Origin: a virus
Lineage: Duplodnaviria > Caudoviricetes
Virus record (IMG/VR): IMGVR_UViG_3300031994_000023
Location: 64,001 to 128,000 of that record
Length of the DNA stretch: 64,000 bases
Strand: one strand, 5' to 3'
Shown: in pieces, positions 3,833 through 30,144 of the stretch
How positions within the stretch are numbered: the first letter of the stretch is position 1
Layout of the letters: each line of letters begins with the position of its first letter
Notes under the pieces: generated by a model
The model's input: only the letters and a program-made list of their open reading frames with translations
The model's database searches: none
What the model was told of the DNA's origin: nothing
Made by a program: the position numbers and the translations under genes

Positions 3833-3851
3833 AAAAACACCATTTTACCTA

Positions 3852-4067: not shown

Positions 4068-4125
4068 CTTTTATCCATTAGTTCATTAAATTTTATTAAT
4101 ATATTGAGAGGATATTATTCCCAGT

Positions 4126-4332: not shown

Positions 4333-4347
4333 AAAATCATCATTTCC

Positions 4348-12229: not shown

Positions 12230-12292
12230 ATTATTTTAAATCACCCACCTCAGAATTAATGTTCTGGTTAATTCTTTTCTATGTTTTCAGTT

Positions 12293-12892
12293 TTATTCAA
12301 TGTCAACTATGGTCACAGTATACTCTTTATTCTCTGACCAATGAGTTCTAAACCATTTTTCTTTATGTATGTCTTTTACTTTGAATGATTCCGTGTTAAC
12401 CCATGATTCTCCTTCATTAACTGCGTAATCAGTCCATCGAGTGATATTAAAATGTCCTACACGGTTGTTTGTTCTGAAAACAACAAGTTCATCATCAGAG
12501 TCGAACATGAAACTAGCATAGTCTTTTGTTTGTTCTATATGTCTACTGAACGCTTTTAATGGTTTGTTGAAATGGATTGGTTCTCCTTTTTTTATGTCTT
12601 CTTTGGGTACGGATGTTCCCATTATTTCCACCCTCGTCAAATGCTCCAAGTCATGTTCCATATGTGATAACACATATTCCATTTCTTCTTCACCTAATAA
12701 ATCTGATGGTGCAGTACTGTGTCCATGAGCGTCGGGGACGGTTATGTGGTCTTGCCACATTTGGATGATGTGAGTTAAATCTTGGAAGAATTGTGGGGTA
12801 TGTCCTTCAAGAGGTATTTTGTCACCATTTTTCAAGGTAAATGTTTCGTCTGAGAATAATGTGTTCAGAGTGCTGTTTCCTTTACTTGCCAT
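12293..12892 (-). CDS. MASK protein 1: ADP-ribosyltransferase-like (ExE)
   Basis: MASKGNSTLNT start; LTRVE...GEPIHFNKPLKAFS...LVVF...NEGESWV. Confidence 0.55.
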   Translation of the reverse strand: MASKGNSTLNTLFSDETFTLKNGDKIPLEGHTPQFFQDLTHIIQMWQDHITVPDAHGHSTAPSDLLGEEEMEYVLSHMEHDLEHLTRVEIMGTSVPKEDIKKGEPIHFNKPLKAFSRHIEQTKDYASFMFDSDDELVVFRTNNRVGHFNITRWTDYAVNEGESWVNTESFKVKDIHKEKWFRTHWSENKEYTVTIVDIE

Positions 12893-12918
12893 GGTTTTTT
12901 CCACATTATCTTTTTTTT

Positions 12919-13554
12919 TTATTCTAATTCAACAAAAGTAACATTGTAATCAAAATTTGCACCTAATATTTCTTCAAGTTCTCTCATTAATTTTGGGTTT
13001 TCACGGTCTTTGTAATTTTTATTATACACTGCGGTTACTTTGTATTCTCTACGACAATCCAACCACAACTCTTGCTCATGTTTCACCACTGACCAATCAT
13101 ATGTTTTAAAGTAGGATGGATTTCCTTTCACTTTGAATATGACTAACTCATCATCTGGTTGAAATGTTGATTCCATGTAATCTTGAGTGCCATGTTCAGT
13201 TTCACTAAACGCTTTTAATGGTTTGTTAAATTTGATGTTTTTTCCAATTACAAAATCTTCCTTAGGGACACTTGTGCCAATTTGTTCTACTCGAGTAATA
13301 CTTTCACGGTCATTTTGCATGTGTTCATAAACATATTTTAATTGGTCGTCGGTTAAGATGTCGGAGGGTGCAGCACTGTGTCCGAATGCATCGGGGACAT
13401 CTTCGTGAAGAATCCATCTGCCTATCGCTTCATATAAATCTGGATGTTTTTTAATTTGTTCTCGTATGTGTTCGGGGAAATAACTTTCAACACCTTGGAT
13501 TATGTTATCTGAGTCATATGTGTTTAGTACGGTTTCACTGTATTTACTTGCCAT
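12919..13554 (-). CDS. MASK protein 2: ADP-ribosyltransferase-like (ExE), paralog of protein 1
   Basis: MASKYSETVLNT; ITRVE...IGKNIKFNKPLKAFS...LVIFKVKG...HEQELWL. Confidence 0.55.
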   Translation of the reverse strand: MASKYSETVLNTYDSDNIIQGVESYFPEHIREQIKKHPDLYEAIGRWILHEDVPDAFGHSAAPSDILTDDQLKYVYEHMQNDRESITRVEQIGTSVPKEDFVIGKNIKFNKPLKAFSETEHGTQDYMESTFQPDDELVIFKVKGNPSYFKTYDWSVVKHEQELWLDCRREYKVTAVYNKNYKDRENPKLMRELEEILGANFDYNVTFVELE

Positions 13555-13565
13555 ATCTTTTTGAT

Positions 13566-14168
13566 TCACTTATCTTCTTGTTCAATATATATCAAGCGGA
13601 TGGGTTTGTTATTGAGTATTTTTTGGTCATCCTCATCCCTAAACAAGGATGGTGGAAAATAATCTTTGTATTTTGTGGTTTCAATTTTTTTTACAACCCA
13701 GTTTTCTGAAGGTACAAATGTTTCTGATTGATGTGCAAAGGGAACACCATCCAATGGGAAATTAGGTGTTCCTTTGGGTGCAACTAGAATATCTAATGTT
13801 GGATACTGCTCAAAATACTTCTTTCTCGAACCTAAAACCCAATCGTCAACTACAAAATTTTGGAAGTTTTGTTTGTCATAACTGAATGATGACATGTCTC
13901 TACGAGTGAAGGGAACTGTATCCCCTACTTGTAGCTGGGAATATTTGGTAGGTGAACGATTTCTTAATTCTTCCATGGTAGGGTAAGTGAAACGGTATAA
14001 TTCATCTTTAGAAGGTTCCATTAATTCTCTCATCAAAGGGATTAATTCTTTAAAGTGTTCATTAAAGTTGGTACCATATTCATACACCCATTTATCAAAT
14101 TCCCAGTGTTCCTCCACAAATGCTTCACTTGCCTCCGAGTTCAGTGTAGTGTTTCCTTTACTTGCCAT
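13566..14168 (-). CDS. MASK protein 3: ADP-ribosyltransferase-like (R-S-QxE)
   Basis: MASKGNTTLNS; LYRF...VGDTVPF...MSSFS...ILVAPKGT...HQSETFV. Confidence 0.65.
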   Translation of the reverse strand: MASKGNTTLNSEASEAFVEEHWEFDKWVYEYGTNFNEHFKELIPLMRELMEPSKDELYRFTYPTMEELRNRSPTKYSQLQVGDTVPFTRRDMSSFSYDKQNFQNFVVDDWVLGSRKKYFEQYPTLDILVAPKGTPNFPLDGVPFAHQSETFVPSENWVVKKIETTKYKDYFPPSLFRDEDDQKILNNKPIRLIYIEQEDK

Positions 14169-14249: not shown

Positions 14250-14549
14250 TTGACAACTTTAAAATATTTTTTAGACAGATTTAAGTGTAAGAATAGATTT
14301 GCAGATAACGTGGAAGCAATTGAGTTGGGTGATGTACAATTTGATGACATGTCATATGGTGACAATGTTATATTGTTCACAAACTCTGAAAACAATGAGG
14401 TGGTTCTGAGAATTGACTTAGACCGAAGAGACATATATCTTTACACGGTTATAAACGAAAAAGAAGTGAAAGTATCTCGTTGGTTAATCCATAACCAAGA
14501 CACACAAAAACTCACAATAACAGTACCAAGAGAACGAGTGAACATGTAA
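14250..14549 (+). CDS. Small plus-strand protein convergent on a peptidase (candidate immunity)
   Basis: Upstream TTTATATA and AGGTGA SD; N-term MTTLKYFLDRF resembles the other convergent genes. Confidence 0.6.
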   Translation: MTTLKYFLDRFKCKNRFADNVEAIELGDVQFDDMSYGDNVILFTNSENNEVVLRIDLDRRDIYLYTVINEKEVKVSRWLIHNQDTQKLTITVPRERVNM

Positions 14550-14609
14550 AAAAAAAGACCCGACCCCACCACACACCATCCACCCCCACCCCATGATACA
14601 AAGAGGGGA

Positions 14610-15449
14610 TTATCCTTTTTTTCTATCGAATTCATAAAAGAAACCACGAACAACTTCAAAAACATCTTCATCTGTTTTACAATCAAGAATAGTGTTCGCA
14701 ACCCTATCCAGATTCGGATTCATCCTCTTCCATTGAGCATAGGATACGGGCTCAGAATACTGATTACCATTTGGATTAGATACTACTGCCATACTAGGAT
14801 TTGTTCTATGCATCGCAACAATCTTAAAGGCATCTGCCCAATTCTCAGAATACCTATTTTCATAATTTAATTTACTATTTTTATCGAATGTGGCGTTAGC
14901 ATAACCACTTGATTTCTCAGTTTCAGATAGGTTCTTAAACCAATCCATACTAGGAATGTTTCTGAGTTTAGGATGGTCTTCCATACAATGTGCCATCTCA
15001 TGATATAATGTGTTTTGGGGCGAATTATAATTTTGATAAAACAATGATTTATTCCCAATGTACACATCATGAGTTCCATAAGGAACCGACCCATACTCTG
15101 CTAGATAATTCTGAGGGTCATAATCAAAGATAATTTTATCTACATTTTTCTTCATCAAATCTGGTGCCTCATTAACATACCGTAACAGGTCTTCCATAGT
15201 GTATGGTACCTCACCATCATTTTTTCGTTGATAGTATTCTAGATTGTCAAGGTAGTGTGTTGTGAATTCTACAGGTATGCCATCAGGTGATGTGAGGTAT
15301 ATTTTTTTTTCGTCATATGAATTTATTATGTAATTTTGTTGTTTACTCGCTTCGAGCAATAGTTTTGCAGAATTCTTTTTTATGTAGGGATTGTCTAAGA
15401 TGTTAGTTGTAGTTATTGTGTTTAAGATGGTACTTCCTTTACTAGACAT
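14610..15449 (-). CDS. MASK protein 4 (MSSK): zincin metallopeptidase, lethal-factor-like
   Basis: HEMAH...SGYA...SENWADAF. Confidence 0.7.
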   Translation of the reverse strand: MSSKGSTILNTITTTNILDNPYIKKNSAKLLLEASKQQNYIINSYDEKKIYLTSPDGIPVEFTTHYLDNLEYYQRKNDGEVPYTMEDLLRYVNEAPDLMKKNVDKIIFDYDPQNYLAEYGSVPYGTHDVYIGNKSLFYQNYNSPQNTLYHEMAHCMEDHPKLRNIPSMDWFKNLSETEKSSGYANATFDKNSKLNYENRYSENWADAFKIVAMHRTNPSMAVVSNPNGNQYSEPVSYAQWKRMNPNLDRVANTILDCKTDEDVFEVVRGFFYEFDRKKG

Positions 15450-15485
15450 ACTGTTCTTCGTGTTCTCATTTTTCTAGAGGAGTTT

Positions 15486-15878
15486 TTATAATGTGATTCC
15501 TTGTTCTTCTAATTCTTGTATTCTCTGGTTGAGTTCTCTCATTTCATCCCTCACCCTGTTATGTGCTTCCCTTGTTTCATCATATATTCTTTGTCTTCGT
15601 CCGAGTGTTGTGAGTAGTGGTGCGGATTCTCCTCTTACCTGTATCTGTGCCTTGATTTTTTCTAGGTCTTCTCTTGCACCCGCTAATTCGGCTCGGAGGA
15701 CGTTCATTTCAACACCTAAATCCCATACTCTTGCCCATTTATCGTTTAACTCTTGATGAAGTGCTTCTGTTTCAGATGGAATTAACCCTAATTTTCTATT
15801 TAATTCAACAAAATTCAGTTCACTTTCACCAGTTGTTTCTGTTCCATTTCCAGAGTTTCCTGTTCCTTTACTTGCCAT
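15486..15878 (-). CDS. MASK protein 5: coiled-coil
   Basis: MASKGTGNSG; heptad-rich body. Confidence 0.65.
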   Translation of the reverse strand: MASKGTGNSGNGTETTGESELNFVELNRKLGLIPSETEALHQELNDKWARVWDLGVEMNVLRAELAGAREDLEKIKAQIQVRGESAPLLTTLGRRQRIYDETREAHNRVRDEMRELNQRIQELEEQGITL

Positions 15879-15947
15879 GATTTTTTTTTTCCTTTATTTT
15901 CAAAAAACTAAATTTATATAAAAAATATGGGGAATATATTAAGTATT

Positions 15948-16067
15948 ATGACTATTCAAATCAAAGACATAATCAAAAAATATCATACAAACATTGAATT
16001 AACTAAAATGACACCTGAACTTCAAAATGTGGATATATTCCAAGATAATGTTAATGTAAATAATTAA
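15948..16067 (+). pseudogene. 39-aa truncated member of the convergent small-gene family
   Basis: MTIQIKDIIKKYHTNIELTKMTPELQNVDIFQDNVNVNN*; TTTATATA at 15913-15920. Confidence 0.4.
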
Positions 16068-16077
16068 TCACTCGTGG

Positions 16078-16563
16078 TTATAAATTGTATTGTGGATGAA
16101 TAATACTTCTTGCTCTTGATGTTAAGTCTAAATATTCTTTTAATTCGGGTGTGTCATTAATATTTTCTACTTCAAAGGAGCCGTCAAGTTTTTCTTGTAA
16201 ACTGTCCAGTTTACTTCTTGCTTCATTTAATAATGATTTTGTCTCATTATATACTGAGTTATTATATTCTGTGGTGATTAAGGGATGTTCTGCCACCCAC
16301 TGTGTATCTTGTTGTTGTCCTACTGTCCATTGATTTGTATTTTGTTGTCGTTGTAAATCCTGTTCTAAGAAATATAATTCATTTCGAAGGTTATTAACTC
16401 TTTCTTGTTGTTGTGTGTTGTTTCTTACGTTAGCCATATATTCTCCCCATGTGGATTCGGTTTGTGCACCACCTTCACTGTTGAGATATATTGCATAGTC
16501 ATCTATTCCTTCGTCGGTGTATGATGTTCCTCCACCTCCACCGCCTGTTCCTTTACTTGCCAT
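16078..16563 (-). CDS. MASK protein 6 (GIDDY leader), helical body
   Basis: MASKGTGGGGGGTSYTDEGIDDYAIYLNSE. Confidence 0.7.
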   Translation of the reverse strand: MASKGTGGGGGGTSYTDEGIDDYAIYLNSEGGAQTESTWGEYMANVRNNTQQQERVNNLRNELYFLEQDLQRQQNTNQWTVGQQQDTQWVAEHPLITTEYNNSVYNETKSLLNEARSKLDSLQEKLDGSFEVENINDTPELKEYLDLTSRARSIIHPQYNL

Positions 16564-16567
16564 GTTA

Positions 16568-17542
16568 TCATTTTATCTTTTTTAAATCTTTGAAGATTTG
16601 TTCTGCTTCCTCTCTTGTTTTACAATCCCATAGTCTGTTCCCCAATTTTGCAGATTCGGGGAATTCTTTCTCCCAACTATTATAATCCATTAGTTTCACA
16701 TGGTTTCCATTATATTCTGCATAAGTATCGGTAATATAATAACGGTTACCTACTCGTATGCGGGCATCGTCGTATCCGAGCCTATGAGAACCCACAACTT
16801 TCATGATTTCTGCAAGAGATTCTGTGTAATATCTAGGATTCGGTACGCCACGTACCATTTCACCACCGCTCTCATAGTTATATGTGTATGTTCCAGCATA
16901 AGTGGACACATTTTGTTTTTGTGTTTTCATTAATCTTCGGAAAGAGGGGTTGGAGGATAATGTAAATTCGTTTTGGTGTCCTCCATTATAGTCAAAGTTA
17001 TGGGTTATTTCATGAATAATAACACCCCTAACATCCCATGCATCATCTTTTTCATAGGATAAAAATGTTTTTTTGATTTCAACAATTCCATCTCTTTCTG
17101 GTCCATCATAATAACTACTCCCAGTTCTACCACTTAGTTTTACTTCTTTTAATGTCTCTTTGAACAAACTTGGTATTTTATCGATAGTTGTTAAGCAGTC
17201 TTCGAGGGTGGCTTGAGAGTGGGAACTCATACTTTCTTGTCTAAACCCTAATTTACAGTCTACAATGTATGTGCCAGTGTCTGTTTTTCCTTCGAATATT
17301 ACTGTTCCATCACTTTTAATTGTTTGAATAACCATATTCGCACTATTTGCTGATGAAAGAACATTCTGAATGTCTTCTTCTGAGAACTTTTTATATTTTC
17401 TCATTTTTTCGGCTTGTTCTTCATTGTAATTAAGTTCGGATGGTGTGAGAGTATGGTCGTCTTGTAAAATAGGGGAGAAATTAGTTTGATAGTCATCTAA
17501 TGTTAACTGGGTGTTTAATGTTATGTTACCTTTGCTCGCCAT
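16568..17542 (-). CDS. MASK protein 7: zincin metallopeptidase
   Basis: MASKGNITLNT; HEITH...VSTYA...TESLAE. Confidence 0.7.
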   Translation of the reverse strand: MASKGNITLNTQLTLDDYQTNFSPILQDDHTLTPSELNYNEEQAEKMRKYKKFSEEDIQNVLSSANSANMVIQTIKSDGTVIFEGKTDTGTYIVDCKLGFRQESMSSHSQATLEDCLTTIDKIPSLFKETLKEVKLSGRTGSSYYDGPERDGIVEIKKTFLSYEKDDAWDVRGVIIHEITHNFDYNGGHQNEFTLSSNPSFRRLMKTQKQNVSTYAGTYTYNYESGGEMVRGVPNPRYYTESLAEIMKVVGSHRLGYDDARIRVGNRYYITDTYAEYNGNHVKLMDYNSWEKEFPESAKLGNRLWDCKTREEAEQIFKDLKKIK

Positions 17543-17553
17543 GTTCCTTTTAT

Positions 17554-19284
17554 TTAGTCATTACTCCAGTATCCTTTGAAGTCGTTGGGATTTCTTATGT
17601 TTTTTATAACATCTGTGTTTTCACGATGGTCTTTTTCCTCTTCTATGGTTGGTACATTTGGTATCATTCCATAATTTTTGGTTTCATCAAGGTTGTTAGG
17701 GTCTACTGGACTTTCCATACTCTCAGGGTTAATGCCTAGTTGTGCCATTTGTAATTTTGTGGATATGTCATTCATCCACATTTGTTGCTGTTGTCTTTGT
17801 GTGTCAAGACTGTGTGATTCTTGACTCATTCCTGCATTGGCAAACATTAAACTTAATGGTGTTCCTCCGACAAAATATTCATCAAGGTATGGGTTGTCAG
17901 GGTCTGCCACTGCCCCTAATGGTTTTCCAAGGCTTTCACTTATTTGTCTTGGAGTCATCGCTCCCAAACTGAAAAGTATGCTCGCACTTTGAAGGTCACG
18001 GGCGTAGTCTCTTTTGTCAATATCTTCTATTTTGAATAACCATGAGAGGTATTTTTCCCCGTGTAAACGATAATATTCGTCACTGAGTATTTGGTTTACT
18101 ATGTCTTCATTTTTCTTTTTAATTGGTTGAATGATACTTGTGTTGTAAATGTTGGATGATTCTACACTAGTGTTTCCACCGAGACTCCCATTTATTGCCA
18201 TACCTATCCTGTATGGTGGAACTCCATGTGCACTTAGGACTTCGTCACGGTTGTCCGCTCGGTATAATCTGAAACTTGCCTCGTTACTTCCTCCTGCGTT
18301 TAGTTTTGTGAAACTTACATGCACGTTTCCTTCGGTGGATGGTACGAGCATGGCGAAGGCACTGTGAGGATTTTTAACGGCTTGTTCCATGTTTTCCTTA
18401 ATTTTGTATTTAAGGGTTTTTGTTTCATCATAGTCTGGGTCTTCTTCGTCCATCCCTGGGTCGAAGTCTCCTGTGACTGTTACTGCATATGAGGGCATTC
18501 CATAATTTTGGAAGAAACTACTGTTAAATCGGCTTCTTCCAAGGTCTCCGAAGATGGCTCTTATGACTGGTACTACTTTTGCACTTCCATATACTGGTGC
18601 GTGTGGTGCATAGTTTACTCCCCATATTAATTCGTTTGCTCTTTCGCTTGGGTCTAAACTGTTGTATTCGACTTGTTCTCCAGTGTCACAGTCGACATCG
18701 AATTTGACTCCATCGGGTGTGGTGTTTTTTCCATATAATATGAACCATCTATGTTTTTTTCCAACTCTTTGTAATACTCGTACTCCGTCTCGGTGTACTT
18801 TCATGTTGAATATGGGTGTGGGGTTAAGGTCGACTATGTCGCTTTCACTTGTGTTCCTTCTGAGAATTTCCATGCATCCACACCCGAGAGCTCTTTTATC
18901 ATAACAGAATCTGTATAATGCCGTGTTTATGGGTGTGTATAATTGTAGTAGGAAATCTTCTATGAATTGTTTCTGGTTTTTTGCTTCGTTAGATTCGTCT
19001 TCCACTTGGTTTCGTGGGACTAAACTGTACCCATATCCACTGGCGTCTTCCGCTACGACTTCGCAACATCTTCTATGGTATGTGTTGTTGTCTAATAATT
19101 CGCAGAGTCTTCTTAAATTATATTGGGGTCGTTTAAATTCGGCGTAATCGTATCCGTCATCATCGACTGCCTTCGTTCTTGCACGTGCTTCGTCCTCTTT
19201 GATAACATACCTGTCTAAGACACTTTTTTCTATTACTTCCCAGTCATTGTTTTTTTGGGTAACTACAAATTGTTCTATTGCCAT
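17554..19284 (-). CDS. Portal protein (PBSX-like)
   Basis: FFQNYGMPSY, EASF..YR..NRDEVLSAHGVPPYRIG...SLGG motifs. Confidence 0.9.
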   Translation of the reverse strand: MAIEQFVVTQKNNDWEVIEKSVLDRYVIKEDEARARTKAVDDDGYDYAEFKRPQYNLRRLCELLDNNTYHRRCCEVVAEDASGYGYSLVPRNQVEDESNEAKNQKQFIEDFLLQLYTPINTALYRFCYDKRALGCGCMEILRRNTSESDIVDLNPTPIFNMKVHRDGVRVLQRVGKKHRWFILYGKNTTPDGVKFDVDCDTGEQVEYNSLDPSERANELIWGVNYAPHAPVYGSAKVVPVIRAIFGDLGRSRFNSSFFQNYGMPSYAVTVTGDFDPGMDEEDPDYDETKTLKYKIKENMEQAVKNPHSAFAMLVPSTEGNVHVSFTKLNAGGSNEASFRLYRADNRDEVLSAHGVPPYRIGMAINGSLGGNTSVESSNIYNTSIIQPIKKKNEDIVNQILSDEYYRLHGEKYLSWLFKIEDIDKRDYARDLQSASILFSLGAMTPRQISESLGKPLGAVADPDNPYLDEYFVGGTPLSLMFANAGMSQESHSLDTQRQQQQMWMNDISTKLQMAQLGINPESMESPVDPNNLDETKNYGMIPNVPTIEEEKDHRENTDVIKNIRNPNDFKGYWSND

Positions 19285-19377
19285 GGTTATCTAGTTTAAT
19301 AGTATATATATGATAAAGTTTATAAGTAAAAAATATGATTAGATTCTCTTTTTTTATATAGATGAGGTGATTTGTTA

Positions 19378-19701
19378 ATGGTTAAAATAAAAGAATTAAT
19401 TAGTGAAACGGGCATTGATGTGAATGTTACAGATGCACTGTTGGAGTTGGAACCTATTAAAAAGTTCAAACTATTAAAATATGATAAAAGTAATATACAT
19501 GGACACAGATTCAAAGGAATTAGCAGTGAAGAGGGTGAAGAATACCGAGTAGTGATTGAAGTAAACGAACACTTTCAATCAATAACCCTAATAGAATACA
19601 AAGAAAAAGTAATTAAAAACAGATGGAACAAGGATGGAATATGGGACAACCCCCAACTACATTACATGCCAACACAAAACGAACTAAAACCTCACCCATA
19701 A
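19378..19701 (+). CDS. Small plus-strand protein convergent on a peptidase (candidate immunity)
   Basis: GAGGTGAT SD before the ATG; MVKIKELISETGIDVNVTDALLELE; 3' end overlaps the peptidase stop. Confidence 0.65.
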   Translation: MVKIKELISETGIDVNVTDALLELEPIKKFKLLKYDKSNIHGHRFKGISSEEGEEYRVVIEVNEHFQSITLIEYKEKVIKNRWNKDGIWDNPQLHYMPTQNELKPHP

Positions 19702-20681
19702 CGCTCCAAGTACAAAGCGTCCATCTTATCCAACCACTCACGAGGAGTTTTAGACTCACGAAACAAACGAGCCACATGGTCTAACTCAGGCTCCAACCTA
19801 ACATGCTCCTCATACGAAATATCCCCCGCAATAGTATACTGTGAACCATTAACATAACCCACCTTACCAGAACCAGGAGTAGAATCCTGAGCCTTTGCAC
19901 GAGTAGGATTAGAAATAGCAGTACCCAGAGGCATAACTGAACATGCAAGATTCTCAGTATGATACATTTCCCTCATTTCTTGTTCAGGATTATTTTTAAA
20001 CCCTCTTGCATACTCTGACGCACTATGCTCCTCTGACAACTTCTTAAAATAAGGATGGTCAGAAAGTGTAGTGTAAGATTCGCCACTTAAATAATCTACT
20101 TTATGAGTTCCTTCATGTTCCATCACATTCTTATAACCACTACTAGCCCATGGGTCTTTTTTATCAAAAATACTGAAAGAATCATAAATTATGACATCAT
20201 TTCCAGGGTCGTAATGTCCACTCTCTCCTTGGTCGTCACCATAAAATATCTGTGCTCCACCATAATACTTGAAAATTTCGGGGTAATCCTTGGCGTAATA
20301 TTTAAAAAACTGTTCGGGTGTAACAATTAATTCTCCGTTGTGCATTGCAGAGAGTACACTTGAATCTAAGAGTAATGCTTGATTATCAAAGTATGCCACA
20401 AATTCTTCATCTTCCATATAAAATTGGTCATAACCTAATTCTTTTAGAGTTTTCAGAAGTTTTGTTGCATCTTCTTCATTGAGGCTCGTGTTCTCAGTTA
20501 AGTATTCTATTGTTTCCGCTTCTTCTTGTTTTGTTGATTCTCTCATCATCATAACCCTTTCGTTGGGATGATGTTCACTACTACTTATCCAGTCACCATA
20601 TGAGTCTATGTATTTGTTGTAATCTTCCAACTCCTTGGTGGAACTTAAACTCATCAGTGATGTGTTTCCTTTACTTGCCAT
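19692..20681 (-). CDS. MASK protein 8: zincin metallopeptidase
   Basis: HEGTH...LSDHPYF...ASEYA...TENLA. Confidence 0.7.
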   Translation of the reverse strand: MASKGNTSLMSLSSTKELEDYNKYIDSYGDWISSSEHHPNERVMMMRESTKQEEAETIEYLTENTSLNEEDATKLLKTLKELGYDQFYMEDEEFVAYFDNQALLLDSSVLSAMHNGELIVTPEQFFKYYAKDYPEIFKYYGGAQIFYGDDQGESGHYDPGNDVIIYDSFSIFDKKDPWASSGYKNVMEHEGTHKVDYLSGESYTTLSDHPYFKKLSEEHSASEYARGFKNNPEQEMREMYHTENLACSVMPLGTAISNPTRAKAQDSTPGSGKVGYVNGSQYTIAGDISYEEHVRLEPELDHVARLFRESKTPREWLDKMDALYLERYG

Positions 20682-20857
20682 AAAACCTTTTTTTTTATGA
20701 TTCTTTTATTTGTAAATTCTCTCTCTCTTTTAATGAAAAACGTGTAAAAATTCCAAAAACACTCATCATTTGTGTGCCAAAATAACACCGTCCATACTCC
20801 ATTTTTCAACAGGGGACTTAATTAATTATATACTTCTTAAACAACATACAAGAATAC

Positions 20858-21166
20858 ATGACCAAACTAAAAAACATACTTCAAAAATTTAATTTAAATC
20901 CTGAGTTAACAGAAGCATTATTTGAGTTAGATTTTGTTGATATTTATGATAATTACCAGAATGAAACTGTAGATGGCAACAAGTTCCTTGTGTTAAGAGG
21001 TACGACCACCACACCAGAGGGGGAAATATACCCTCAAGAATTGGTTATTGATGAACAAAACCAAAAAGTAGTGGCATACGGTTATCCATTCAATGACACA
21101 AAATATGAGAAAGCACCTATTTTTTATCAGGAATATGATAAAAATGGTGAAATTATAGGAATATAA
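20858..21166 (+). CDS. Small plus-strand protein convergent on a peptidase (candidate immunity)
   Basis: TTATATA about 26 nt upstream (leaderless); MTKLKNILQKFNLNPELTEALFELD. Confidence 0.65.
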   Translation: MTKLKNILQKFNLNPELTEALFELDFVDIYDNYQNETVDGNKFLVLRGTTTTPEGEIYPQELVIDEQNQKVVAYGYPFNDTKYEKAPIFYQEYDKNGEIIGI

Positions 21167-21207
21167 AAAAAAGAGTACAGTATTCTTTTCTCCCTATTTT
21201 TTTTTAT

Positions 21208-22083
21208 TTATTTGAGTATTTGTGGTGTGGGCTCTGTTGGTTCTAAATATGTTTGTGCATAGAGTTTAGGGTTTTCTATAAATTCGCCTGCTAATTTTAT
21301 CATTTGTTTGTTTTCATCTTTTTTTGCCCAAGTCTTGTATGGCATAAGACCTTCTTTTGTAGGTACAATTATGTTTTCACCATGTTTTTTGGCTAATTGA
21401 ACATATGCTCCTACTTCTGCCAAGTTTTCTGCCCTTTTTCTCCAATCCGTAGACCTTGGGTCAATTGATACTGCATATGCATATTCTGTTGGTGTTTTAC
21501 CATCAGACGCTTCTTTCCACGCTTTGTTCTTAGAGAAAAAGCCTCGCACACTATTACTACTCCGGTATGCCCAGTCAAGAGAATGTATTGACTCATGATT
21601 CAAAGAATATTCTAAACTTTGTGGACTGTTCTTTGAGTGTAGTAAATTTCCAGCAGTGATTATGATTACGTTGGCACTTGGAACGAATTGTCCGAGAACT
21701 TCCCTACCATTTGGATTATATTTTGGTCCAGTGAATGTTATTTGGTTAACATGTCCTTTAATGTTAGGATTTAAGTTTGTATAATACTCCATAACATCCC
21801 TCAAAGTGTATCGTCCATCAGGTAAATTGTCATTTAATCCGAACCTTGAATTAGTAAGAAATGCTCCTCTAAATACCAATCTTTCGTTAGGTGCATTAGG
21901 GTCAGAGTTTGATAGGATGAGAGAATCTATTTTTTTATCATAGGTTGCGTTGAACCCATATTCTTTGGCTACTGTTTCAATGTATTTTATTTGATTGTCC
22001 ATTAAGTAACCCATTTGGTTGAGGTTTTTAATTTCAACGGAGTCTGTGGATATTGCGTTTAGTGAAGAGTATTTACTTGCCAT
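21208..22083 (-). CDS. MASK protein 9: zincin metallopeptidase
   Basis: HESIH...PTEYA...AENLAE. Confidence 0.7.
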   Translation of the reverse strand: MASKYSSLNAISTDSVEIKNLNQMGYLMDNQIKYIETVAKEYGFNATYDKKIDSLILSNSDPNAPNERLVFRGAFLTNSRFGLNDNLPDGRYTLRDVMEYYTNLNPNIKGHVNQITFTGPKYNPNGREVLGQFVPSANVIIITAGNLLHSKNSPQSLEYSLNHESIHSLDWAYRSSNSVRGFFSKNKAWKEASDGKTPTEYAYAVSIDPRSTDWRKRAENLAEVGAYVQLAKKHGENIIVPTKEGLMPYKTWAKKDENKQMIKLAGEFIENPKLYAQTYLEPTEPTPQILK

Positions 22084-22130
22084 AATCCCTTTTTTATGTT
22101 AATCCTGTTTGTCGTTTTATACTTTTTTTT

Positions 22131-22697
22131 TTATTTGTATCTTTCACTGACTAGTGTGTCCATTGCTGTTTGTGCACTATAATATCTGTCAAAGAATTCT
22201 TCTAGGTACCCTTGGTTTCCGAGATATTCTATTTGTCGTTCTAAGTCTCTGTTGATTCGTTCATTGTTTAAACCTCTGGCTTGTATTGTTTCCTGCATTG
22301 CCTTTGAGGATATTATGGTGTTTAATCTGTTTTGAACATCTCGTCCTCTTGATAATGTACCCATGAGTTCGGAGTAGGCTTGTTCTAGTTGCTCCGTTGG
22401 TTCTCTCAGTTGATTAAATGGGTAATTTTCTGTTTCAATATTATGTACGAGTTGTCTTGCCATTGACACTCTTTGTCTTTCGAGGTCATCTAGTTTTTGG
22501 GTTACATTATCTATTATTTCATCTGTGTCTTGCAGTAAGTGTTCTCGACTTCCGAAGGCACTTTCATTAGTTTGTGTTCCTGTTTCTGTTTCAGTTAATT
22601 CTTCTCCTGTGAGTGGGTCTGTGTTGTGCCAGTTTCCTTCACCATCTATGTATCCTACTCCCATTTGAATATTACTTCCACCATCTTTACTAGCCAT
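22131..22697 (-). CDS. MASK protein 10: helical/coiled-coil
   Basis: MASKDGGS start. Confidence 0.65.
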   Translation of the reverse strand: MASKDGGSNIQMGVGYIDGEGNWHNTDPLTGEELTETETGTQTNESAFGSREHLLQDTDEIIDNVTQKLDDLERQRVSMARQLVHNIETENYPFNQLREPTEQLEQAYSELMGTLSRGRDVQNRLNTIISSKAMQETIQARGLNNERINRDLERQIEYLGNQGYLEEFFDRYYSAQTAMDTLVSERYK

Positions 22698-22852
22698 TAT
22701 TTTATTATTCTCCTATTATATCTCTTTTTTTTGTGCCACATTGTTAGTTTGTGGCACGGAATTTAATAGTTTTTTTTCTCTGAAAAAAAAAAGAATTCAT
22801 TACAATAATTAATAAAAAATTATATCATTTATTAAAAACAAAAAAGATAATT

Positions 22853-23185
22853 ATGACAACAATAAATGATATTTTTAAACAATTCGGTTTAGACTGCCAT
22901 CTTTGTGAAACATTAAAAAAACACACACTAAAATATAACCCTACAATAACAGATTACAATCATGAAAAAAACCCTCAAACAAACAAAGCAATATATGAGA
23001 GATATTCATTTACTGGAACCTGTAACAAAGAAGGAACACCATGTGACATAAAATTAAACATAATGGTATATGACAACAATACCAAATTACATTATCGTGT
23101 AGAAGATAACAGTCGCTTCAAATCACCATTAAACGAGGGCATAACCATAGACTGTGACGGAAACAAAGGCTACGACCTAGGATAA
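22853..23185 (+). CDS. Small plus-strand protein convergent on a peptidase (candidate immunity)
   Basis: MTTINDIFKQFGLD; AT-rich TATA-like upstream region. Confidence 0.6.
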   Translation: MTTINDIFKQFGLDCHLCETLKKHTLKYNPTITDYNHEKNPQTNKAIYERYSFTGTCNKEGTPCDIKLNIMVYDNNTKLHYRVEDNSRFKSPLNEGITIDCDGNKGYDLG

Positions 23186-23264
23186 AAAAAACCCATCCTA
23201 CACCCCAACTTCTTCACCAAACTCTCAATTCTTTTTTTTCCACAAAAAACAATAAACACTCCGT

Positions 23265-24212
23265 TTATAACTTGCTATCCATGAATGCCACCACTTCATC
23301 AACAGAATTTGCATTATACACAACATCCGCCAACTCTGCCAACTCCTTATGAGACTTTCTCCAATCACCATAAGGCATGTCATTACCTGGATTAGAAGGG
23401 TCTTCAATCATTGCAAGATGTCGTGTACTCTTATCTGACCAATATCTCATAGGCATAACCGCTTCCGCCAAGTTTTCACAATAATATTTCCTATTCTCAT
23501 CAGGGTCAGATGAATTTTTATAACTTAAACTATACCCCGAAGCTGCACTTTTATCCGAAATTTTCATGAAATAAGGATGATTTGAGATTATTCCACCACC
23601 ATTAAGTGCACCTTTTCCTCCGAAATCCAATCTATGCACATGCTCATGTAACATTGTATGTCCTAAATCATAACTAGTACCTTGACCTATTTGGAACAAT
23701 GGTGTAACACTTATATAAATCTCATTGTCTTCTGTGTAATAGTTTTGGTCAGAATATGCGAATATTACTTTTCCACCATTTGCATGGAATAAATCTGGTT
23801 GATTATTTATTTCATCTAAGATTGATGAAAAACGGTATGCTGAATCGAATGGGTTGATTGGTATTTCATCTTCCACAAATTCTAGGTATCTGTCAGATAT
23901 GAAATATATTTGATTGTCTTGTCGTAATGTTATTCCATTTATTCCTTCATGTTCGTATTCTGGTAATATTTCGAATCCTGCATTTTGTATGTCATAGTAT
24001 AAGTCGTAGTATGCGTCAATGTCAAGTGTTTCTTCGTCAACCGTTTTGCTTTTTTCTGCCAGAAAATCTTCGACATCATCTACTGATTCCATATTATAGT
24101 ATTCATCTAATGAAGGGTCGTATGTTTTTTCTTGTTCGTCGAATGTTTCTTCGTATTCTTCCTCTGTCTCAGAAACGGTTGTTGTGGAACCACCACCATA
24201 TTTACTTGCCAT
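23265..24212 (-). CDS. MASK protein 11: zincin metallopeptidase
   Basis: HEHVHRLDF...ISNHPYF...ASGYS...CENLAEAVMPMRY. Confidence 0.7.
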   Translation of the reverse strand: MASKYGGGSTTTVSETEEEYEETFDEQEKTYDPSLDEYYNMESVDDVEDFLAEKSKTVDEETLDIDAYYDLYYDIQNAGFEILPEYEHEGINGITLRQDNQIYFISDRYLEFVEDEIPINPFDSAYRFSSILDEINNQPDLFHANGGKVIFAYSDQNYYTEDNEIYISVTPLFQIGQGTSYDLGHTMLHEHVHRLDFGGKGALNGGGIISNHPYFMKISDKSAASGYSLSYKNSSDPDENRKYYCENLAEAVMPMRYWSDKSTRHLAMIEDPSNPGNDMPYGDWRKSHKELAELADVVYNANSVDEVVAFMDSKL

Positions 24213-24255: not shown

Positions 24256-25212
24256 CTAAAAGTATTCATCCATATATTCATCTTTTAAGTGTTGTGGATA
24301 TGATTCCCATTTTTTGTCCAAGAATGACACTATCTCATCTAATGAATTAGAAGAATAAACTTTCTCTGCAACCTCTGCTAATTCCGTGTGTGTTTTCCTC
24401 CAGTTCCCATAGGGTATGTCTTCTCCTGTGTCAGGGTCACTAATCATAGCCATATGTCTTGTAGATTTATTCGCATAATATCTCATAGGCATAACAGATT
24501 CCGCCAAATTCTCTCCAAAGTAATTTTGCCAATCTAATGGATTATCACTTTCTTTGTAAGATTTACTGTATGCCGATGCAGGACTGCTATTTGAAATTGC
24601 CCTAAAATATGGATGTCCAGATATAAGTCCTTCACGTTGTTGTTTTCCTTGTTCAAAATCAAGCCTATGTATATGTTCATGAAGAATAGTTTGCCCTATT
24701 GAACCAGAAGTTCCTTTTTTATCATTGTCGAGCATGGTTGTACTGAGAGTAATTTCATTACTATAAGGGTCATAATAATTTTGGAAGGTGTCTTCTAAAC
24801 GTACAAGACCACCCATTGACTTAATTAATGGAGGATGTGAATCAAACTCTGCTAGAATATCTTTTAAAGAGTAATCTGTCTGATAATCAAGGGTTCCTCT
24901 CTTTTCGTTAAGGTAGTCCTTGTATTCATCAGATAAAAAATAAACATTATTATCTTTTCGGAACATTATCCCATCAACACCATCATAGGAAAATGTTGGA
25001 AGAACTTCATAACTGTTTGCAGTTAATGCGTCATAAATCTGAGCTAATTCTTGTTTAATTTCTGGTTCATCCACTCCCATTTCTTCCATTTTGGTGTTTA
25101 TAAAATCTTCTTTCCCCATTTCTTTCATATCATAATATGAAGATAGTGAAGGGTCACGGAGATTCAATGTACTCTCCGATGAAAGTAGAATAGAACTATA
25201 TTTACTTGCCAT
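24256..25212 (-). CDS. MASK protein 12: zincin metallopeptidase, close paralog of protein 11
   Basis: HEHIHRLDF...ISGHPYF...ASAYS...GENLAESVMPMRY. Confidence 0.7.
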   Translation of the reverse strand: MASKYSSILLSSESTLNLRDPSLSSYYDMKEMGKEDFINTKMEEMGVDEPEIKQELAQIYDALTANSYEVLPTFSYDGVDGIMFRKDNNVYFLSDEYKDYLNEKRGTLDYQTDYSLKDILAEFDSHPPLIKSMGGLVRLEDTFQNYYDPYSNEITLSTTMLDNDKKGTSGSIGQTILHEHIHRLDFEQGKQQREGLISGHPYFRAISNSSPASAYSKSYKESDNPLDWQNYFGENLAESVMPMRYYANKSTRHMAMISDPDTGEDIPYGNWRKTHTELAEVAEKVYSSNSLDEIVSFLDKKWESYPQHLKDEYMDEYF

Positions 25213-25248: not shown

Positions 25249-25839
25249 TTATGCCTCTTCAATATAAATTAAGCGTACTTTTTCGTTTTCCCTCAGTTCT
25301 TCATGAGTAGTATTTTTCCTGTCAAAGAAATCATAATAATTAACTGTTTTAATATCCTTAACAAGCCACCCCTCACCTTTACCGTCACCCCTCACTAAAC
25401 GTTCTGCCTGACCATATTCTTCTTGATAATAGTCAAGAGAAAACATGGGAGTACCTTTCGGTGCGATGAATATATTGTAGGGAGCATTGTTTAATTGTCT
25501 GTATCGGGGGTTTCTGAATATTTCAACAACACCCTCTTGAAACGAAGAGAAATCTTCACTAAACGATTTAAGTGTTCCTGTGAAGAATACGGAATCTCCA
25601 ATTTTCAAGTTATCATGTTCATTTTCATACGCTTCATCTCCATAGTTTGTATTGGATGGAGTGCTAAATCTATACAATACATCTTCTGATGGTTCCATAT
25701 GGTCAAGTATATACTGTTCTTGTTCGGGGCTAAAAAGATTGCCATCACCCGAAACCCATTTATCGAATGTTTCCAGATTATCTTGGATATATTGGTCAGA
25801 TAATTGTGATTGTAGTGTCACATTGCCCTTGCTCGTCAT
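25249..25839 (-). CDS. MASK protein 13 (MTSK): ADP-ribosyltransferase-like (R-S-QxE)
   Basis: VLYRF...IGDSVFF...LKSFS...IFIAPKGT...YGQAERLV; paralog of protein 3. Confidence 0.65.
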   Translation of the reverse strand: MTSKGNVTLQSQLSDQYIQDNLETFDKWVSGDGNLFSPEQEQYILDHMEPSEDVLYRFSTPSNTNYGDEAYENEHDNLKIGDSVFFTGTLKSFSEDFSSFQEGVVEIFRNPRYRQLNNAPYNIFIAPKGTPMFSLDYYQEEYGQAERLVRGDGKGEGWLVKDIKTVNYYDFFDRKNTTHEELRENEKVRLIYIEEA

Positions 25840-25930: not shown

Positions 25931-27451
25931 TTACATTATAATTTTTGTTCGTTTATGAGTCCATTGTCGAGCACTGCCGGTGAGACTATCCACAATGTCA
26001 TCACGTTCACCTTCCACACCCGTGAAACTAATTAATTGTTCAATCATCTTATTATTCCATGGGGCACGAACGAATTTAACACAACGACTTTCTGCCAAAT
26101 TTTCCAAAGCGAAACTACGAATATTCTTTGCACCACGCACTTTATCACCACGAATATTCCATAACTTAAGACGAGGATGATTTGCAAAACTGTTAATAAG
26201 AATTCGACTACCACTACCAGGCTCTTCCTCAATCCTTATTCTCACATGTCTACCATCCTTCAATGCAATTCTCATAAATGTTTCATTAACCATTTTCGGA
26301 GTGAAATTCCCATTTACAAGGTCGAGAACATAGAGTGTTTCGCCATCATACGCAGTTAACACACCACTAGTTTCATCACCTTCAGGTTTATAGTTTGCCT
26401 TGGTTTTCTTGTTAGCTGCGAAATCCCAGTATCTCATCCGAGGTATTCCTTCGGGTACTTCATCTTTTTCTATTATGCATGTAGGCACCACTCCATCTTC
26501 ATCGTAGAACCATTCTCTTCGGAACACATATCCTTGTCTTACGGTAGGGTTGCCTTGATATACTGCGTTGAAGAGGTAAGAACCCATACTTCTCTTGGCT
26601 TCCATTAACACATTAATATCCCTTTGTTCTTCCCACAAGACTTCTCCTTCTTTTCTTCCTAGAAGGTCACGAGAAGGGTCTTCACATATTGCGGGGAAGT
26701 TAACATCAACCCATACTTCTTGAGGTATTGCCCCACCTTTCCTTAAAATCTCTAATGCCTCTTTAGCATCAATTGTTGGCTCATTTCGTTGAATGATTCC
26801 CTGCAAATCATTGATATGTAAACGTTGTGCGATTATGAGCATTATGGGTGGTAGTCCATTACTACGTTTTTGTAAACGAGTTTTTGCAGTTGCCTCAAAC
26901 CATGACCTTAATTTATCTTGCAATACAGGACTTTCCGCTTCGGCAATGTTTTTAATAGGGTCGTCAATTATGAAGAGCCCCGCACCGAAACCGAGGATAG
27001 AACCGGCAGCACCTACACTTAACATTTGTCCTTCAAATGGTTTTTGCATGTGAAACTTGTTTTTTGCCTTACTATCTGTTGCAAGTCCCGCTTTAAGAAG
27101 TGTTTGGTCACTATAATAGTTAAGAATGTCTTTTACTTCTCCTCCGAATTCACTGGCTAAACCCTGTGAATAAGAGGATAAAATCACCTGCTCATTTGGG
27201 AAGTTTGCAAGGAAATATGAACAAAATATTTTACTTATGAGTGTGGATTTTCCGTGTCGTGGTGGTACGGAGAGCATGAGTTTGGAGACTTTACCTTGGA
27301 TGGCATAATAAAGAAATTCTATGATTATTTTGTCAAAGTCTCTTGGTTTCCATGTTCCATTGGTTATTAATTTACCCCACATTGCAATATTTATGGAGGC
27401 AGGGTTGTACAAATCGTTAGGTAATTTTTTATCTATTTCTGTTTCGGTCAT
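25931..27451 (-). CDS. terL: Terminase large subunit
   Basis: Walker A PPRHGKS, Walker B FIIDDPIK, nuclease RYWDFA and DDIVDSL. Confidence 0.93.
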   Translation of the reverse strand: MTETEIDKKLPNDLYNPASINIAMWGKLITNGTWKPRDFDKIIIEFLYYAIQGKVSKLMLSVPPRHGKSTLISKIFCSYFLANFPNEQVILSSYSQGLASEFGGEVKDILNYYSDQTLLKAGLATDSKAKNKFHMQKPFEGQMLSVGAAGSILGFGAGLFIIDDPIKNIAEAESPVLQDKLRSWFEATAKTRLQKRSNGLPPIMLIIAQRLHINDLQGIIQRNEPTIDAKEALEILRKGGAIPQEVWVDVNFPAICEDPSRDLLGRKEGEVLWEEQRDINVLMEAKRSMGSYLFNAVYQGNPTVRQGYVFRREWFYDEDGVVPTCIIEKDEVPEGIPRMRYWDFAANKKTKANYKPEGDETSGVLTAYDGETLYVLDLVNGNFTPKMVNETFMRIALKDGRHVRIRIEEEPGSGSRILINSFANHPRLKLWNIRGDKVRGAKNIRSFALENLAESRCVKFVRAPWNNKMIEQLISFTGVEGERDDIVDSLTGSARQWTHKRTKIIM

Positions 27452-29210: not shown

Positions 29211-29370
29211 TTTTCCTTCCTTTTTCAGAGTATTCTATTGTATCTTCTTCTAATATTGGGTTATGAACATTTCCGTCTGCGTCTATGGTTTCGAGAATGT
29301 ATCCTTCTTCATCATTGAGTATACTGTATTCTCCATCCCTAGTTACTTTGCTCAAAATTTTTTCAATCAT
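29191..29370 (-). CDS. 59-aa hypothetical protein
   Basis: Hand translation MIEKILSKVTRDGEYSILNDEEGYILETID...; overlaps the terS start. Confidence 0.4.
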   Translation of the reverse strand: MIEKILSKVTRDGEYSILNDEEGYILETIDADGNVHNPILEEDTIEYSEKGRKNVKKRQ

Positions 29371-29452
29371 GTATATAAGATATGTGTTAAATTAAAGTTT
29401 ACAAAAAATAATAAAAAAAAAAATAATAATAGGGAGGAGAGGATGCTTTTAT

Positions 29453-29860
29453 CTAAAGGTAAATCTGGAAATCTTCTTGTCGTGCAGGTTGAGGAATAAC
29501 TACTCTTCCCCCACTTCGTGGACGGAATATTCTATTAAATAAGTTTTGATAATTTCCTGTTTCATAGGCTTCTCGAAGGTCTTCTACGGGGATTTCTCCA
29601 CCGATTATTACATTTCCTGCATGGTCATATGCTGCCTCATCCATTTCCCCTAAATTATCCCTTATTGCCCTTCTTAAACCTATGTCAAATGTATGGGTTT
29701 CATCATCATCTATTTCTTCCAAGAAGTTATCTAGTTCTTCTTGTGTGTCTCCTGCGGGTGTTGTTCCTGCTTCTGTGTTAAGGTATGTTGGATAATCGTC
29801 TATTCCGGTGTCTTCGTAGGAGGCTCCTCCACCTCCACCACCTTCTCCTTTACTAGCCAT
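29453..29860 (-). CDS. MASK protein 16 (GIDDY leader)
   Basis: First 28 aa identical to protein 14; body unrelated. Confidence 0.7.
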   Translation of the reverse strand: MASKGEGGGGGGASYEDTGIDDYPTYLNTEAGTTPAGDTQEELDNFLEEIDDDETHTFDIGLRRAIRDNLGEMDEAAYDHAGNVIIGGEIPVEDLREAYETGNYQNLFNRIFRPRSGGRVVIPQPARQEDFQIYL

Positions 29861-29874
29861 TGATTATTCCCTCT

Positions 29875-30144
29875 TTATCCTCTGTTTCCTCTGTTATTTC
29901 CACTCTTACTCATATTTATTCTGTCGTCGACAGTACGAGTACCTTCATTTTCATTTATACCTGGTGCTCCCTCACGACCCATAAGTCTGTCTATGAAGTC
30001 ATCTACATCTGCATTTACATTTCCTGCGGGTGTGACCATTGCAGTTGCTGTTCCGTCGGCTCCACCACTTCTTGGTCCTCTTGTACGGGTGTTGTCTCCT
30101 GCTCCTGTTAGTCCACCGACTCCGTATCCTTGTTTGCTTGCCAT
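29875..30144 (-). CDS. MASK protein 17: Gly/Arg-rich small protein
   Basis: MASKQGYG start. Confidence 0.6.
   Translation of the reverse strand: MASKQGYGVGGLTGAGDNTRTRGPRSGGADGTATAMVTPAGNVNADVDDFIDRLMGREGAPGINENEGTRTVDDRINMSKSGNNRGNRG

Follow-up and report, generated by a model that had tools for sequence, protein, structure and literature searches.

Why does a virus region with nearly all of its genes on one strand keep four small genes on the other, each running into the end of a peptidase gene? The question is raised by a stretch of 64,000 nucleotides (the window), bases 64001-128000 of the 141.8-kb IMG/VR virus record IMGVR_UViG_3300031994_000023, a record that is ~92% complete. The window is the head-assembly region of a ~142-kb tailed virus, and nearly all window genes lie on the minus strand. 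The four small plus-strand genes, named here by their first base (14250, 19378, 20858, and 22853), all lie, just as the original prediction from this DNA described, tail-to-tail with the gene of an HExxH metallopeptidase (zincin), with 3' ends ranging from a 10-nt overlap to a 79-nt gap. That prediction took each small protein for an inhibitor that shields the producing cell from the neighboring peptidase, or else for an agent of superinfection exclusion. For three of the four genes a cognate partnership is supported by adjacency to zincins in three orientations, by the gene order behind fusions of zincins with the MuF domain in relatives, and by co-divergence; for 14250 it is not. We conclude that the three belong to a small new protein family, family A, whose candidate role on the basis of gene context is that of a cognate inhibitor (immunity protein) of the adjoining zincin, with a probability of roughly 0.55. 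The fourth gene belongs to a second family, family B, which keeps company with a different class of putative enzymes.

Family A, a new family of small proteins

The small genes are real: no other plus-strand open reading frames (ORFs) of at least 90 amino acids (aa) fall in gaps between minus-strand genes within 1-45 kb, and the remaining long plus-strand ORFs in this interval are shadows of minus-strand genes, which bears out the earlier statement that they are the sole credible plus-strand genes here. Genes 19378, 20858, and 22853 form one family together with a truncated remnant at 15927, a fifth copy that turned up when the virus was searched with one of the small proteins and that is 44% identical over 34 aa to L004:9322-9678 (relatives are given by locus handle). 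A family-A profile built from eight copies was run exhaustively against 1.84 billion (1.84e9) representative proteins and returned 28 matches, of which ~25 are 86-121-aa proteins with the same N-terminal motif. The family signature consists of M-x-T-[LI]-[KN]-[ED]-[LI]-[LI]-x-K-[FY]-N, a 'DG..IHVF' strand, and a C-terminal 'YD.[ND]G', and ~40 homologs were found in total across viruses and proviruses. The relatedness of N-termini claimed for all four small proteins is therefore real and family-wide, but 14250 lies outside the family of the other three and has the N-terminal helix alone in common with it.

The AlphaFold2 (AF2) model of the 20858 protein (m7dd07e2378b5, from a 29-sequence alignment) reaches a predicted local distance difference test (pLDDT) of 94.7 and a predicted template modeling (pTM) score of 0.85, and shows a six-stranded antiparallel sheet against which two short N-terminal helices pack. 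A Pfam scan of 29 family-A members found no shared family, and PHROGs and PDB profile searches with the small proteins gave no usable match. One member matched DUF1779 (E 2.4e-4), and a PepSY-like row of the ESM Atlas was returned at a template modeling (TM) score of 0.47 with a low-quality Atlas model; both are leads only. The small proteins tend to be acidic, with isoelectric points (pI) of 4.3-6.4. A 95%-identical copy of 19378 occurs in another sample (L010) and differs by three synonymous and four conservative changes; the ratio of nonsynonymous to synonymous substitution rates (dN/dS) of ~0.31 is weak, coming from seven changes only.

Two long profile matches (P0008 and P0028) are unrelated repeat proteins and were rejected as fusions of A with a zincin. 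The family-A domain is tandemly duplicated within one protein in P0015, L031:1498-2100, and L048:1441-2268 (176, 200, and 275 aa, respectively).

Pairing of family A with zincin genes in viruses and proviruses

The contigs and proviruses of relatives were inspected for the pairing, whose absence there would have spoken against the original prediction, and it is kept: an A gene adjoins a zincin-family gene in every resolvable context, covering ~10 viral contigs, ~10 Methanobacteriaceae proviruses, and three orientations. In the viral contigs, each of the 19 full-length A genes with a readable neighbor directly adjoins a zincin; 17 are convergent with it, one is co-directional and 10 nt upstream (L005:8043-8363), and one is co-directional and downstream of a MuF–zincin fusion (L013). 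The 137-kb virus L004/L005, with a portal 76% identical to that of the window and a rearranged gene order, has seven zincins, each with an adjoining family-A gene (six of the seven convergent), and 4-nt overlaps between convergent 3' ends are found in L004. The pairs outlast large rearrangements, TerL lying downstream of the portal gene in L004 and upstream of it in the window, and the pairing is repeated in L008/L009, L012, L015, L014, L006, L018/L019, and L020. Because the adjacency survives rearrangement and is found in three orientations, we regard A and zincin as probable cognate partners.

Among 314 Methanobacteriaceae genomes surveyed, 19 have A and 17 the zincin, with both present in seven as compared with ~1 expected. 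The two were on the same contig in all seven and adjacent in six. Six further zincin loci were re-read, five without an adjoining A match at the strict threshold plus the G185 locus: three proved to have an A-like ORF directly downstream and one a motif-like ORF, the A gene of G185 lies two genes off, and the sixth locus has an unrelated small ORF.

Zincin and A also diverge together. Similarity matrices of 22 zincin/A pairs, compared by Mantel permutation, are correlated (Pearson 0.50, permutation p = 5e-5; Spearman 0.34, p = 0.003), and the nearest relatives of a zincin and of its partner fall in the same other module for 8 of the 22, against 1.0 expected. A first mirror-tree test with 12 pairs was marginal (p ~0.03), and the result became clear after orthologous modules were added. 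Orthologous modules compare at 45% for the zincin and 32% for the small protein (window 19692/19378 with L015), 55% and 45% (L005c with L020), and 40% and 42% (L004d with L018). By sequence comparison the pair behaves as a unit of inheritance, although co-divergence alone does not prove contact.

Distant A-like genes are present in the Methanobacteriaceae loci L028, L044, and L046; they match mainly the N-terminal motif and have no zincin within 1.5 kb. The A-like genes in the three genomes follow a gene for a small secreted-looking protein and a transporter-like gene, and in L028 the other flank is purC/purS/purQ-like. They are possibly orphan or domesticated copies. P0017, which lies beside host genes in L007 and may be an orphan copy or mark the edge of a provirus, gave no match in a genome scan, and an A gene is absent at the corresponding spot in the Methanosphaera and Methanobrevibacter genomes reached via the flanking host gene.

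Zincins and their carriers

The six neighboring HExxH proteins are paralogs in which H, E, H, Y, and E are invariant, and with a further paralog (33738-34868) the window has seven zincins, three of them with a full-length family-A partner. The active site is intact in a 17-sequence zincin alignment, with invariant H163 and E164, H167 in 16 of the 17, and a near-invariant Y201. The third zinc ligand is E219, a Glu on the downstream helix that is invariant within an E[NS]xA[ED] motif; a weak profile match (E 0.11) places this motif opposite ENIAD of ECE-1. No Pfam family scored above cut-off, the weak matches being Peptidase_M91 (E 0.0035) and SprT-like (E 0.01), and a PDB profile search found nothing below E 0.06; these searches did not place the zincins in MEROPS family M34 by sequence. 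A word-indexed search for zincin homologs returned three only.

Structural comparison is more informative. The AF2 model of the 21208-22083 zincin (m36d97e1b75d9) has a pLDDT of 85 and a disordered tag, and its top VIA-align match is the catalytic domain of anthrax lethal factor (1yqy_A, Z 11.6, root-mean-square deviation 4.3, 200 aligned), with Pro-Pro endopeptidases (PPEP) also matched (PPEP-3 9g0j_A, Z 9.6; PPEP-2 6fpc_A, Z 8.2). The top Foldseek rows are all zinc peptidases at E ~0.1. From this model the zincins are predicted to be gluzincins with a lethal-factor/PPEP-like fold. One relative has a zincin gene with a disrupted motif (L008:11510-12307, minus strand; HEFVYAH) in which the downstream Glu motif is kept.

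In some relatives the zincin domain is carried by MuF. A 550-aa protein of the integrase-bearing, 32-kb L013 (3295-4947) joins Phage_Mu_F (PF04233, 44.9 bits) to a C-terminal zincin of this family (E 1.4e-22); the A gene lies 53 nt beyond it, in the same direction. The provirus gene order is TerL, portal, MuF(PF04233)–...–zincin (578-1071 aa), A. A MuF domain on zincin proteins was also found in L050, L051, and L052, and a small ORF lies co-directional and downstream of the zincin in L013 and in proviruses L049-L053, L054, L056, and L058. In contrast, the 142-kb virus has no match to PF04233 anywhere, and the partners in the window are all convergent, none being co-directional downstream.

MuF toxins have been surveyed: muf follows the portal gene, 20% of the toxin domains are metallopeptidases and ADP-ribosyltransferases are frequent, and behind 89% of the toxins lies a small ORF with a putative immunity function (PMC5576092). 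Zhang et al. (2012; PMC3482391) listed a metallopeptidase toxin of the anthrax-lethal-factor type and a capsid route via MuF, with Euryarchaeota included. For Apk2-type MuF toxins, it was shown experimentally that immunity proteins inhibit by protein-protein contact and are mostly specific to their own partner (PMC12226406). We favor an immunity role for A because its position after the MuF–zincin fusion in proviruses reproduces the canonical toxin-then-immunity order.

Two loci show other arrangements of these domains. In L004, the closest relative, the portal is followed by a short MuF protein standing on its own (11683-12579; PF04233, 33.4 bits), whose gene shares 8 nt with the beginning of a tagged zincin gene (12572-13387); the arrangement resembles a halfway stage from the MuF–zincin fusions to the free, tagged zincins in the window. 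In L049 an 856-aa protein (3525-6095, minus strand) has a C-terminal zincin domain and occupies the position of the MuF–zincin fusions, with no MuF match found; its residues 444-532 are LAGLIDADG-like (E 1.8e-4, just under the Pfam cut-off), and this stretch may be an inserted intein or homing endonuclease.

Head-assembly region, tags, and possible transcription signals

The features of the region are given in Table 1. The portal, anchor of the head module and marker of the virus lineage, has its next best matches after Drs3 in other methanogen viruses and in haloarchaeal viruses, and the host is probably a Methanobacteriaceae methanogen. All pairs are placed between TerL and the prohead protease. 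The same virus record, outside the window, encodes a tyrosine integrase/recombinase (G000:C1:26473-27066; PF00589, 40.9 bits), and since it carries this gene the 142-kb tailed virus is probably temperate. Zincin 16568 has a weak PHROG match to the C-terminal part of a 'head morphogenesis' family, and relatives have a MuF or MuF–zincin gene in its place. The unit formed by the portal, this zincin, and a coiled-coil-like protein ends with 16078-16563, which is tail-to-tail with the A remnant.

Table 1. Features of the head-assembly region (coordinates in the window; HMM, hidden Markov model)
Feature	Coordinates	Strand	Details
XkdF-type prohead protease/scaffold	10736-12229		Flanks the region, as does the capsid gene
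MASK-tagged R-S-E paralog	12293-12892	-	
MASK-tagged R-S-E paralog	12919-13554	-	
MASK-tagged R-S-E-motif protein	13566-14168	-	Invariant R59, G82, F95, S96; near-invariant E149 (alignment A6)
Family-B small gene	14250-14549	+	99 aa; TTG start; AGGTGA ribosome-binding site; head-to-head with 13566-14168; tail-to-tail with zincin 14610-15449, 60-nt gap
Convergent gap	14550-14609	.	A9/T9 run at stop of 14250; G-rich tract on minus strand; T7 run just inside 3' end of 14610
MSSK-tagged zincin	14610-15449	-	HEMAH; no family-A partner in this virus
Truncated family-A remnant	15927-16067	+	39-46 aa, N-terminal motif only; family-A HMM E 6.8e-5; converges on 16078-16563
MASK-tagged coiled-coil-like protein	16078-16563	-	Between zincin 16568 and A remnant
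MASK-tagged zincin	16568-17542	-	HEITH; starts 12 nt after portal gene; remnant 15927 only
Portal protein	17554-19284	-	PF04860; 43% identical to Methanobacterium virus Drs3 portal
Family-A small gene	19378-19701	+	107 aa; converges on zincin 19692-20681, 10-nt overlap; family-A HMM E 1.5e-20
MASK-tagged zincin	19692-20681	-	HEGTH...ENLA; partner of 19378
Family-A small gene	20858-21166	+	102 aa; pI 4.3; convergent with zincin 21208-22083, 41-nt gap
MASK-tagged zincin	21208-22083	-	HESIH, E219, Y201; pI 8.7; partner of 20858
Family-A small gene	22853-23185	+	110 aa; convergent with zincin 23265-24212, 79-nt gap; family-A HMM E 3.6e-22
MASK-tagged zincin	23265-24212	-	HEHVH; partner of 22853
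MASK-tagged zincin	24256-25212	-	HEHIH; 41% identical to 23265-24212, directly upstream of it; no small partner
MASK-tagged R-S-E paralog	25249-25839	-	
TerL	25931-27451		Flanks the region
Seventh zincin paralog	33738-34868	-	HELTH; outside the region first described; no small partner

About 15 genes between TerL and the protease encode products that start with MASKG, MASKY, or similar, an N-terminal tag of 5-10 residues in the window. Of the ORFs in the virus, 17 begin with M[AST]SK[GYD], and in two others this sequence is found at an internal Met, giving 17 to 19 tagged genes for the whole record. Tagged proteins would be packaged in the capsid. The same zincin domain is thus found on varied carriers, namely MuF (L013 and proviruses) and four short tags. 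The tag is uniform within each virus and different between related viruses: MASKG/MASKY in the window, MGKNRK in L004/L005, MGKSRQ in L008/L009, and MGNN/MGHN in L012. The tags of the window and L004 differ although the portals are 76% identical.

Boxes resembling TTTATATA lie 25-45 nt upstream of the small genes and make the TATA-like promoters proposed for them plausible, while the background of 66% A+T leaves such boxes weak support. Ribosome-binding sites (AGGTG/GAGGT) precede two of the five small genes (14250 and 19378). Each boundary of a minus-strand unit in the stretch is occupied by one such plus-strand gene, and the convergent gaps hold oligo-T runs on both strands; these fit separate transcription units, which in DNA of 66% A+T is only suggestive. 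In the gap behind 14250, positions 14551-14600 are C-rich on the plus strand, and the minus strand reads GGGGTGGGGGTGGATGGTGTGTGGTGGGGTCGGG and then T9 right after the stop of zincin 14610. This tract with its T-run could form a G-quadruplex and may serve as a terminator, and the gap 14550-14609 as a whole is likely a two-way terminator region, judging from its sequence. Two further plus-strand ORFs in minus-gene gaps, 29263-29499 (78 aa) and 29860-30111 (83 aa), match neither family A nor family B.

Gene 14250 and family B

The family-A HMM does not detect 14250. Together with five orthologs this gene defines family B (family-B HMM E 2.9e-39 for 14250), which has the motif IGDYTF...W[LF]RI.DDR...V.VTSW. 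In every locus (window, L005, L008, and L042) B adjoins a tagged gene for a protein with the R-S-E motif, in which the Arg is invariant, the F-S dipeptide belongs to an SFS-type motif, and the Glu is near-invariant. The two are head-to-head in the window, L005, and L008, and B is co-directional and downstream in L008 and twice in L042 (order R-S-E, B, R-S-E, B). Gene 14250 and zincin 14610 are consequently probably not a cognate pair, the conserved neighbor of 14250 being R-S-E gene 13566-14168 and not the zincin. Two relatives have an A gene at the syntenic position, separating the B gene from the zincin, and because this intervening gene is missing in the window, the adjacency of 14250 and 14610 is most likely an accident of A-gene loss.

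The R-S-E proteins have no Pfam or PDB sequence match; from the conserved residues they are possibly capsid-delivered ADP-ribosyltransferases. One of the four R-S-E genes in the virus has an adjoining family-B gene. We propose B as a partner of R-S-E cargo, corresponding to the role of A for the zincins.

Proposed role of family A and alternatives

As a cognate inhibitor, A would act in the cytoplasm of the producing cell or the lysogen, where it would bind its own zincin. A proteins are without the tag borne by all putative cargo, and because of this A would be left out of the capsid into which the zincin is loaded. With transcription from the opposite strand and a promoter of its own, the small gene would not be tied to the late structural operons, and the antidote could be present before the zincins or independently of them. 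Either the producing cell would be protected, or zincins ejected by a superinfecting relative would be neutralized. The system may derive from the MuF polymorphic toxin and immunity module of the smaller methanogen proviruses, in which case the zincin would have exchanged its MuF carrier for a short tag and increased in copy number, with the gene of the antidote inverted.

Several observations weigh against inhibition. The A fold did not match known inhibitor or immunity proteins in Foldseek, which gave nothing below E 0.1, or in the wide VIA-align search, in which the best score (Z 5.7) was background, as were the TriTu, CdiI, Ugi, and staphostatin chains (Z 4.3-4.7). No natural A–zincin fusion was found among the 1.84e9 representatives. 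Four of the seven zincins lack a full-length partner (24256, 33738, and 14610 have none and 16568 the remnant only), so that either they are harmless to the producer, or protection extends across paralogs, or the role of the partner is non-essential. The zincin of L008 with the broken HExxH retains a convergent family-A partner (11204-11500), which is unexpected if the partner only neutralizes catalysis. The N-terminal helix is common to A and B though the enzymes served differ, a hint that the two share a function other than blocking the active site. Finally, host genomes hold distant A-like genes with no zincin nearby.

The unpartnered zincins, the partner of the broken HExxH, the common helix, and the zincin-less host genes keep alive a second explanation, which we consider unlikely but still tenable: that A and B are cargo-specific chaperones or loading adaptors comparable to type III secretion chaperones, which would keep the enzyme soluble or partly unfolded and hand it to the procapsid while staying unpackaged themselves, inhibition being a side effect. 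Small size, acidic tendency, and adjacency to a cognate delivered enzyme would all suit such a protein, as would co-divergence of the modules, and the common helix could touch a common assembly component while the variable sheet binds cargo. However, the partner is also kept beside MuF-fused zincins, whose capsid targeting MuF supplies, and the four zincins and three of the four R-S-E genes that have no partner are all tagged. Transcription from the opposite strand, moreover, splits the small genes from the late cargo operon, an odd arrangement for a stoichiometric assembly factor.

A third explanation is a variant of the inhibitor model that retains inhibition and changes the beneficiary. In it the small genes would belong to the 'moron' type, expressed in lysogeny for superinfection exclusion or kin discrimination, or kept by hosts as orphan copies for defense, with protection of the producer secondary. 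Their opposite strand, own TATA-like boxes, and flanking oligo-T runs are in keeping with this, as are the integrase of the virus and the integrases or prophage contexts of relatives, and chromosomal A-like genes without zincins (e.g., those beside purC/S/Q in three genomes) would be the captured copies. A model in which prophage-encoded immunity shields siblings has been proposed for MuF toxins (Jamet et al., 2017; PMC5576092). We find this doubtful as the primary role: the orphan copies match the N-terminal part of the profile only and may have another function, and with divergence between viruses as extreme as it is here, an antidote would rarely fit the non-identical zincin of an incoming virus.

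It is improbable that the small genes have no direct protein-protein tie to the zincins and are accessory genes (anti-defense or regulators), or an insulator or antisense brake, co-traveling in a mobile cassette. Every plus-strand small gene does sit exactly at a boundary of minus-strand transcription units, overlapping or abutting 3' ends (10 nt at 19692-19701, 4 nt in L004) could cause transcriptional interference, and linkage alone can yield co-divergence. Yet the adjacency holds where the genes are co-directional, whether A is upstream (L005:8043) or downstream (L013 and proviruses) and insulation or antisense action is inapplicable; because the partnership survives such arrangements, a purely positional role is unlikely. 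Protein sequence and fold are conserved, not position alone, and A tracks the zincin domain and B the R-S-E domain whatever the carrier (MuF or tag). The last alternative, chance open frames in AT-rich intergenic DNA, could appeal to short length, AT-rich surroundings, and the lack of a Pfam or PHROG family match, and was rejected as having next to no likelihood given ~40 homologs with conserved motifs, the pLDDT of 94.7, and gaps without a competing frame.

Beyond the cognate inhibitor itself, a broader picture can be offered only tentatively, and we would not expect it to hold in full: an arsenal of at least seven capsid-delivered lethal-factor-like peptidases plus R-S-E enzymes, each class with its antidote family encoded, in this virus, on the opposite strand, would be in place, with the antidotes serving mainly in virus-versus-virus conflict (superinfection exclusion and kin discrimination among gut or rumen methanogen viruses), and orphan antidote copies would have been captured by methanogen chromosomes as a novel type of antiviral defense, one that disarms viral effectors after their ejection.

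Comparison with known systems

If A is an inhibitor, the locus extends the logic of head-delivered toxin and immunity to viruses of methanogenic archaea, and it shows how such a module can be rebuilt, with MuF replaced by a tag of a few residues, one toxin by seven copies, and the antidote gene moved to the other strand. It also defines two new small protein families, A (zincin-linked) with a confident structural model, and B (R-S-E-linked). If the zincins are ejected effectors, their substrates would reveal what an archaeal virus must cleave on entry, and the antidotes, if they are such, would supply specific inhibitors, ready for use, against lethal-factor-like peptidases. Loading proteins into the capsids of archaeal viruses is a possible application of the short tags.

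The zincins resemble anthrax lethal factor and PPEP (M34) in the HExxH helix, the downstream Glu ligand, the conserved Tyr, and a putative use as delivered effectors; they differ in lacking significant sequence similarity and in the spacing from Tyr to Glu. A 'Tox-ALF metallopeptidase' with Imm-SuFu immunity has been described (Zhang et al., 2012), and the partner in the window is not SuFu-like.

The internal proteins and Alt of phage T4 offer a parallel for the tagged set, being several virus-encoded enzymes and anti-defense proteins with a short common N-terminal sequence that presumably enter the head and leave it together with the DNA on ejection. The T4 tag is removed by the prohead protease, and we know of no cognate antidote genes for T4 cargo carrying the capsid-targeting sequence. 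Small protein inhibitors of ~100 aa are encoded beside their target metallopeptidases in the serralysin inhibitor Inh/I38, emfourin, and PepSY propeptides, and are proposed to block the enzyme inside the producer. Family A is like these in size and adjacency; no sequence or fold match to them was obtained, and the resemblance is a lead only.

To our knowledge, accounts of polymorphic toxins that are delivered by phage heads and have immunity genes are confined to bacteria, where they have been tested in part. The module itself is known; new here are the archaeal-virus setting, the two partner families, and the unusual gene arrangement. Like MuF toxins, the window has enzymatic domains in the head module beside the portal of a probably temperate tailed virus, putative cargo of metallopeptidase and possibly ADP-ribosyltransferase type, and a small, fast-evolving, family-less ORF adjoining the putative toxin gene. 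The differences are that the window zincins have a short tag instead of MuF and number seven rather than one, that the partner genes form a new family and are convergent on the opposite strand and not co-directional downstream, and that the hosts are archaeal, which the 2017 survey does not mention. The relatives of this virus complete the likeness, having the full MuF-toxin layout of portal, MuF–zincin, and A gene.

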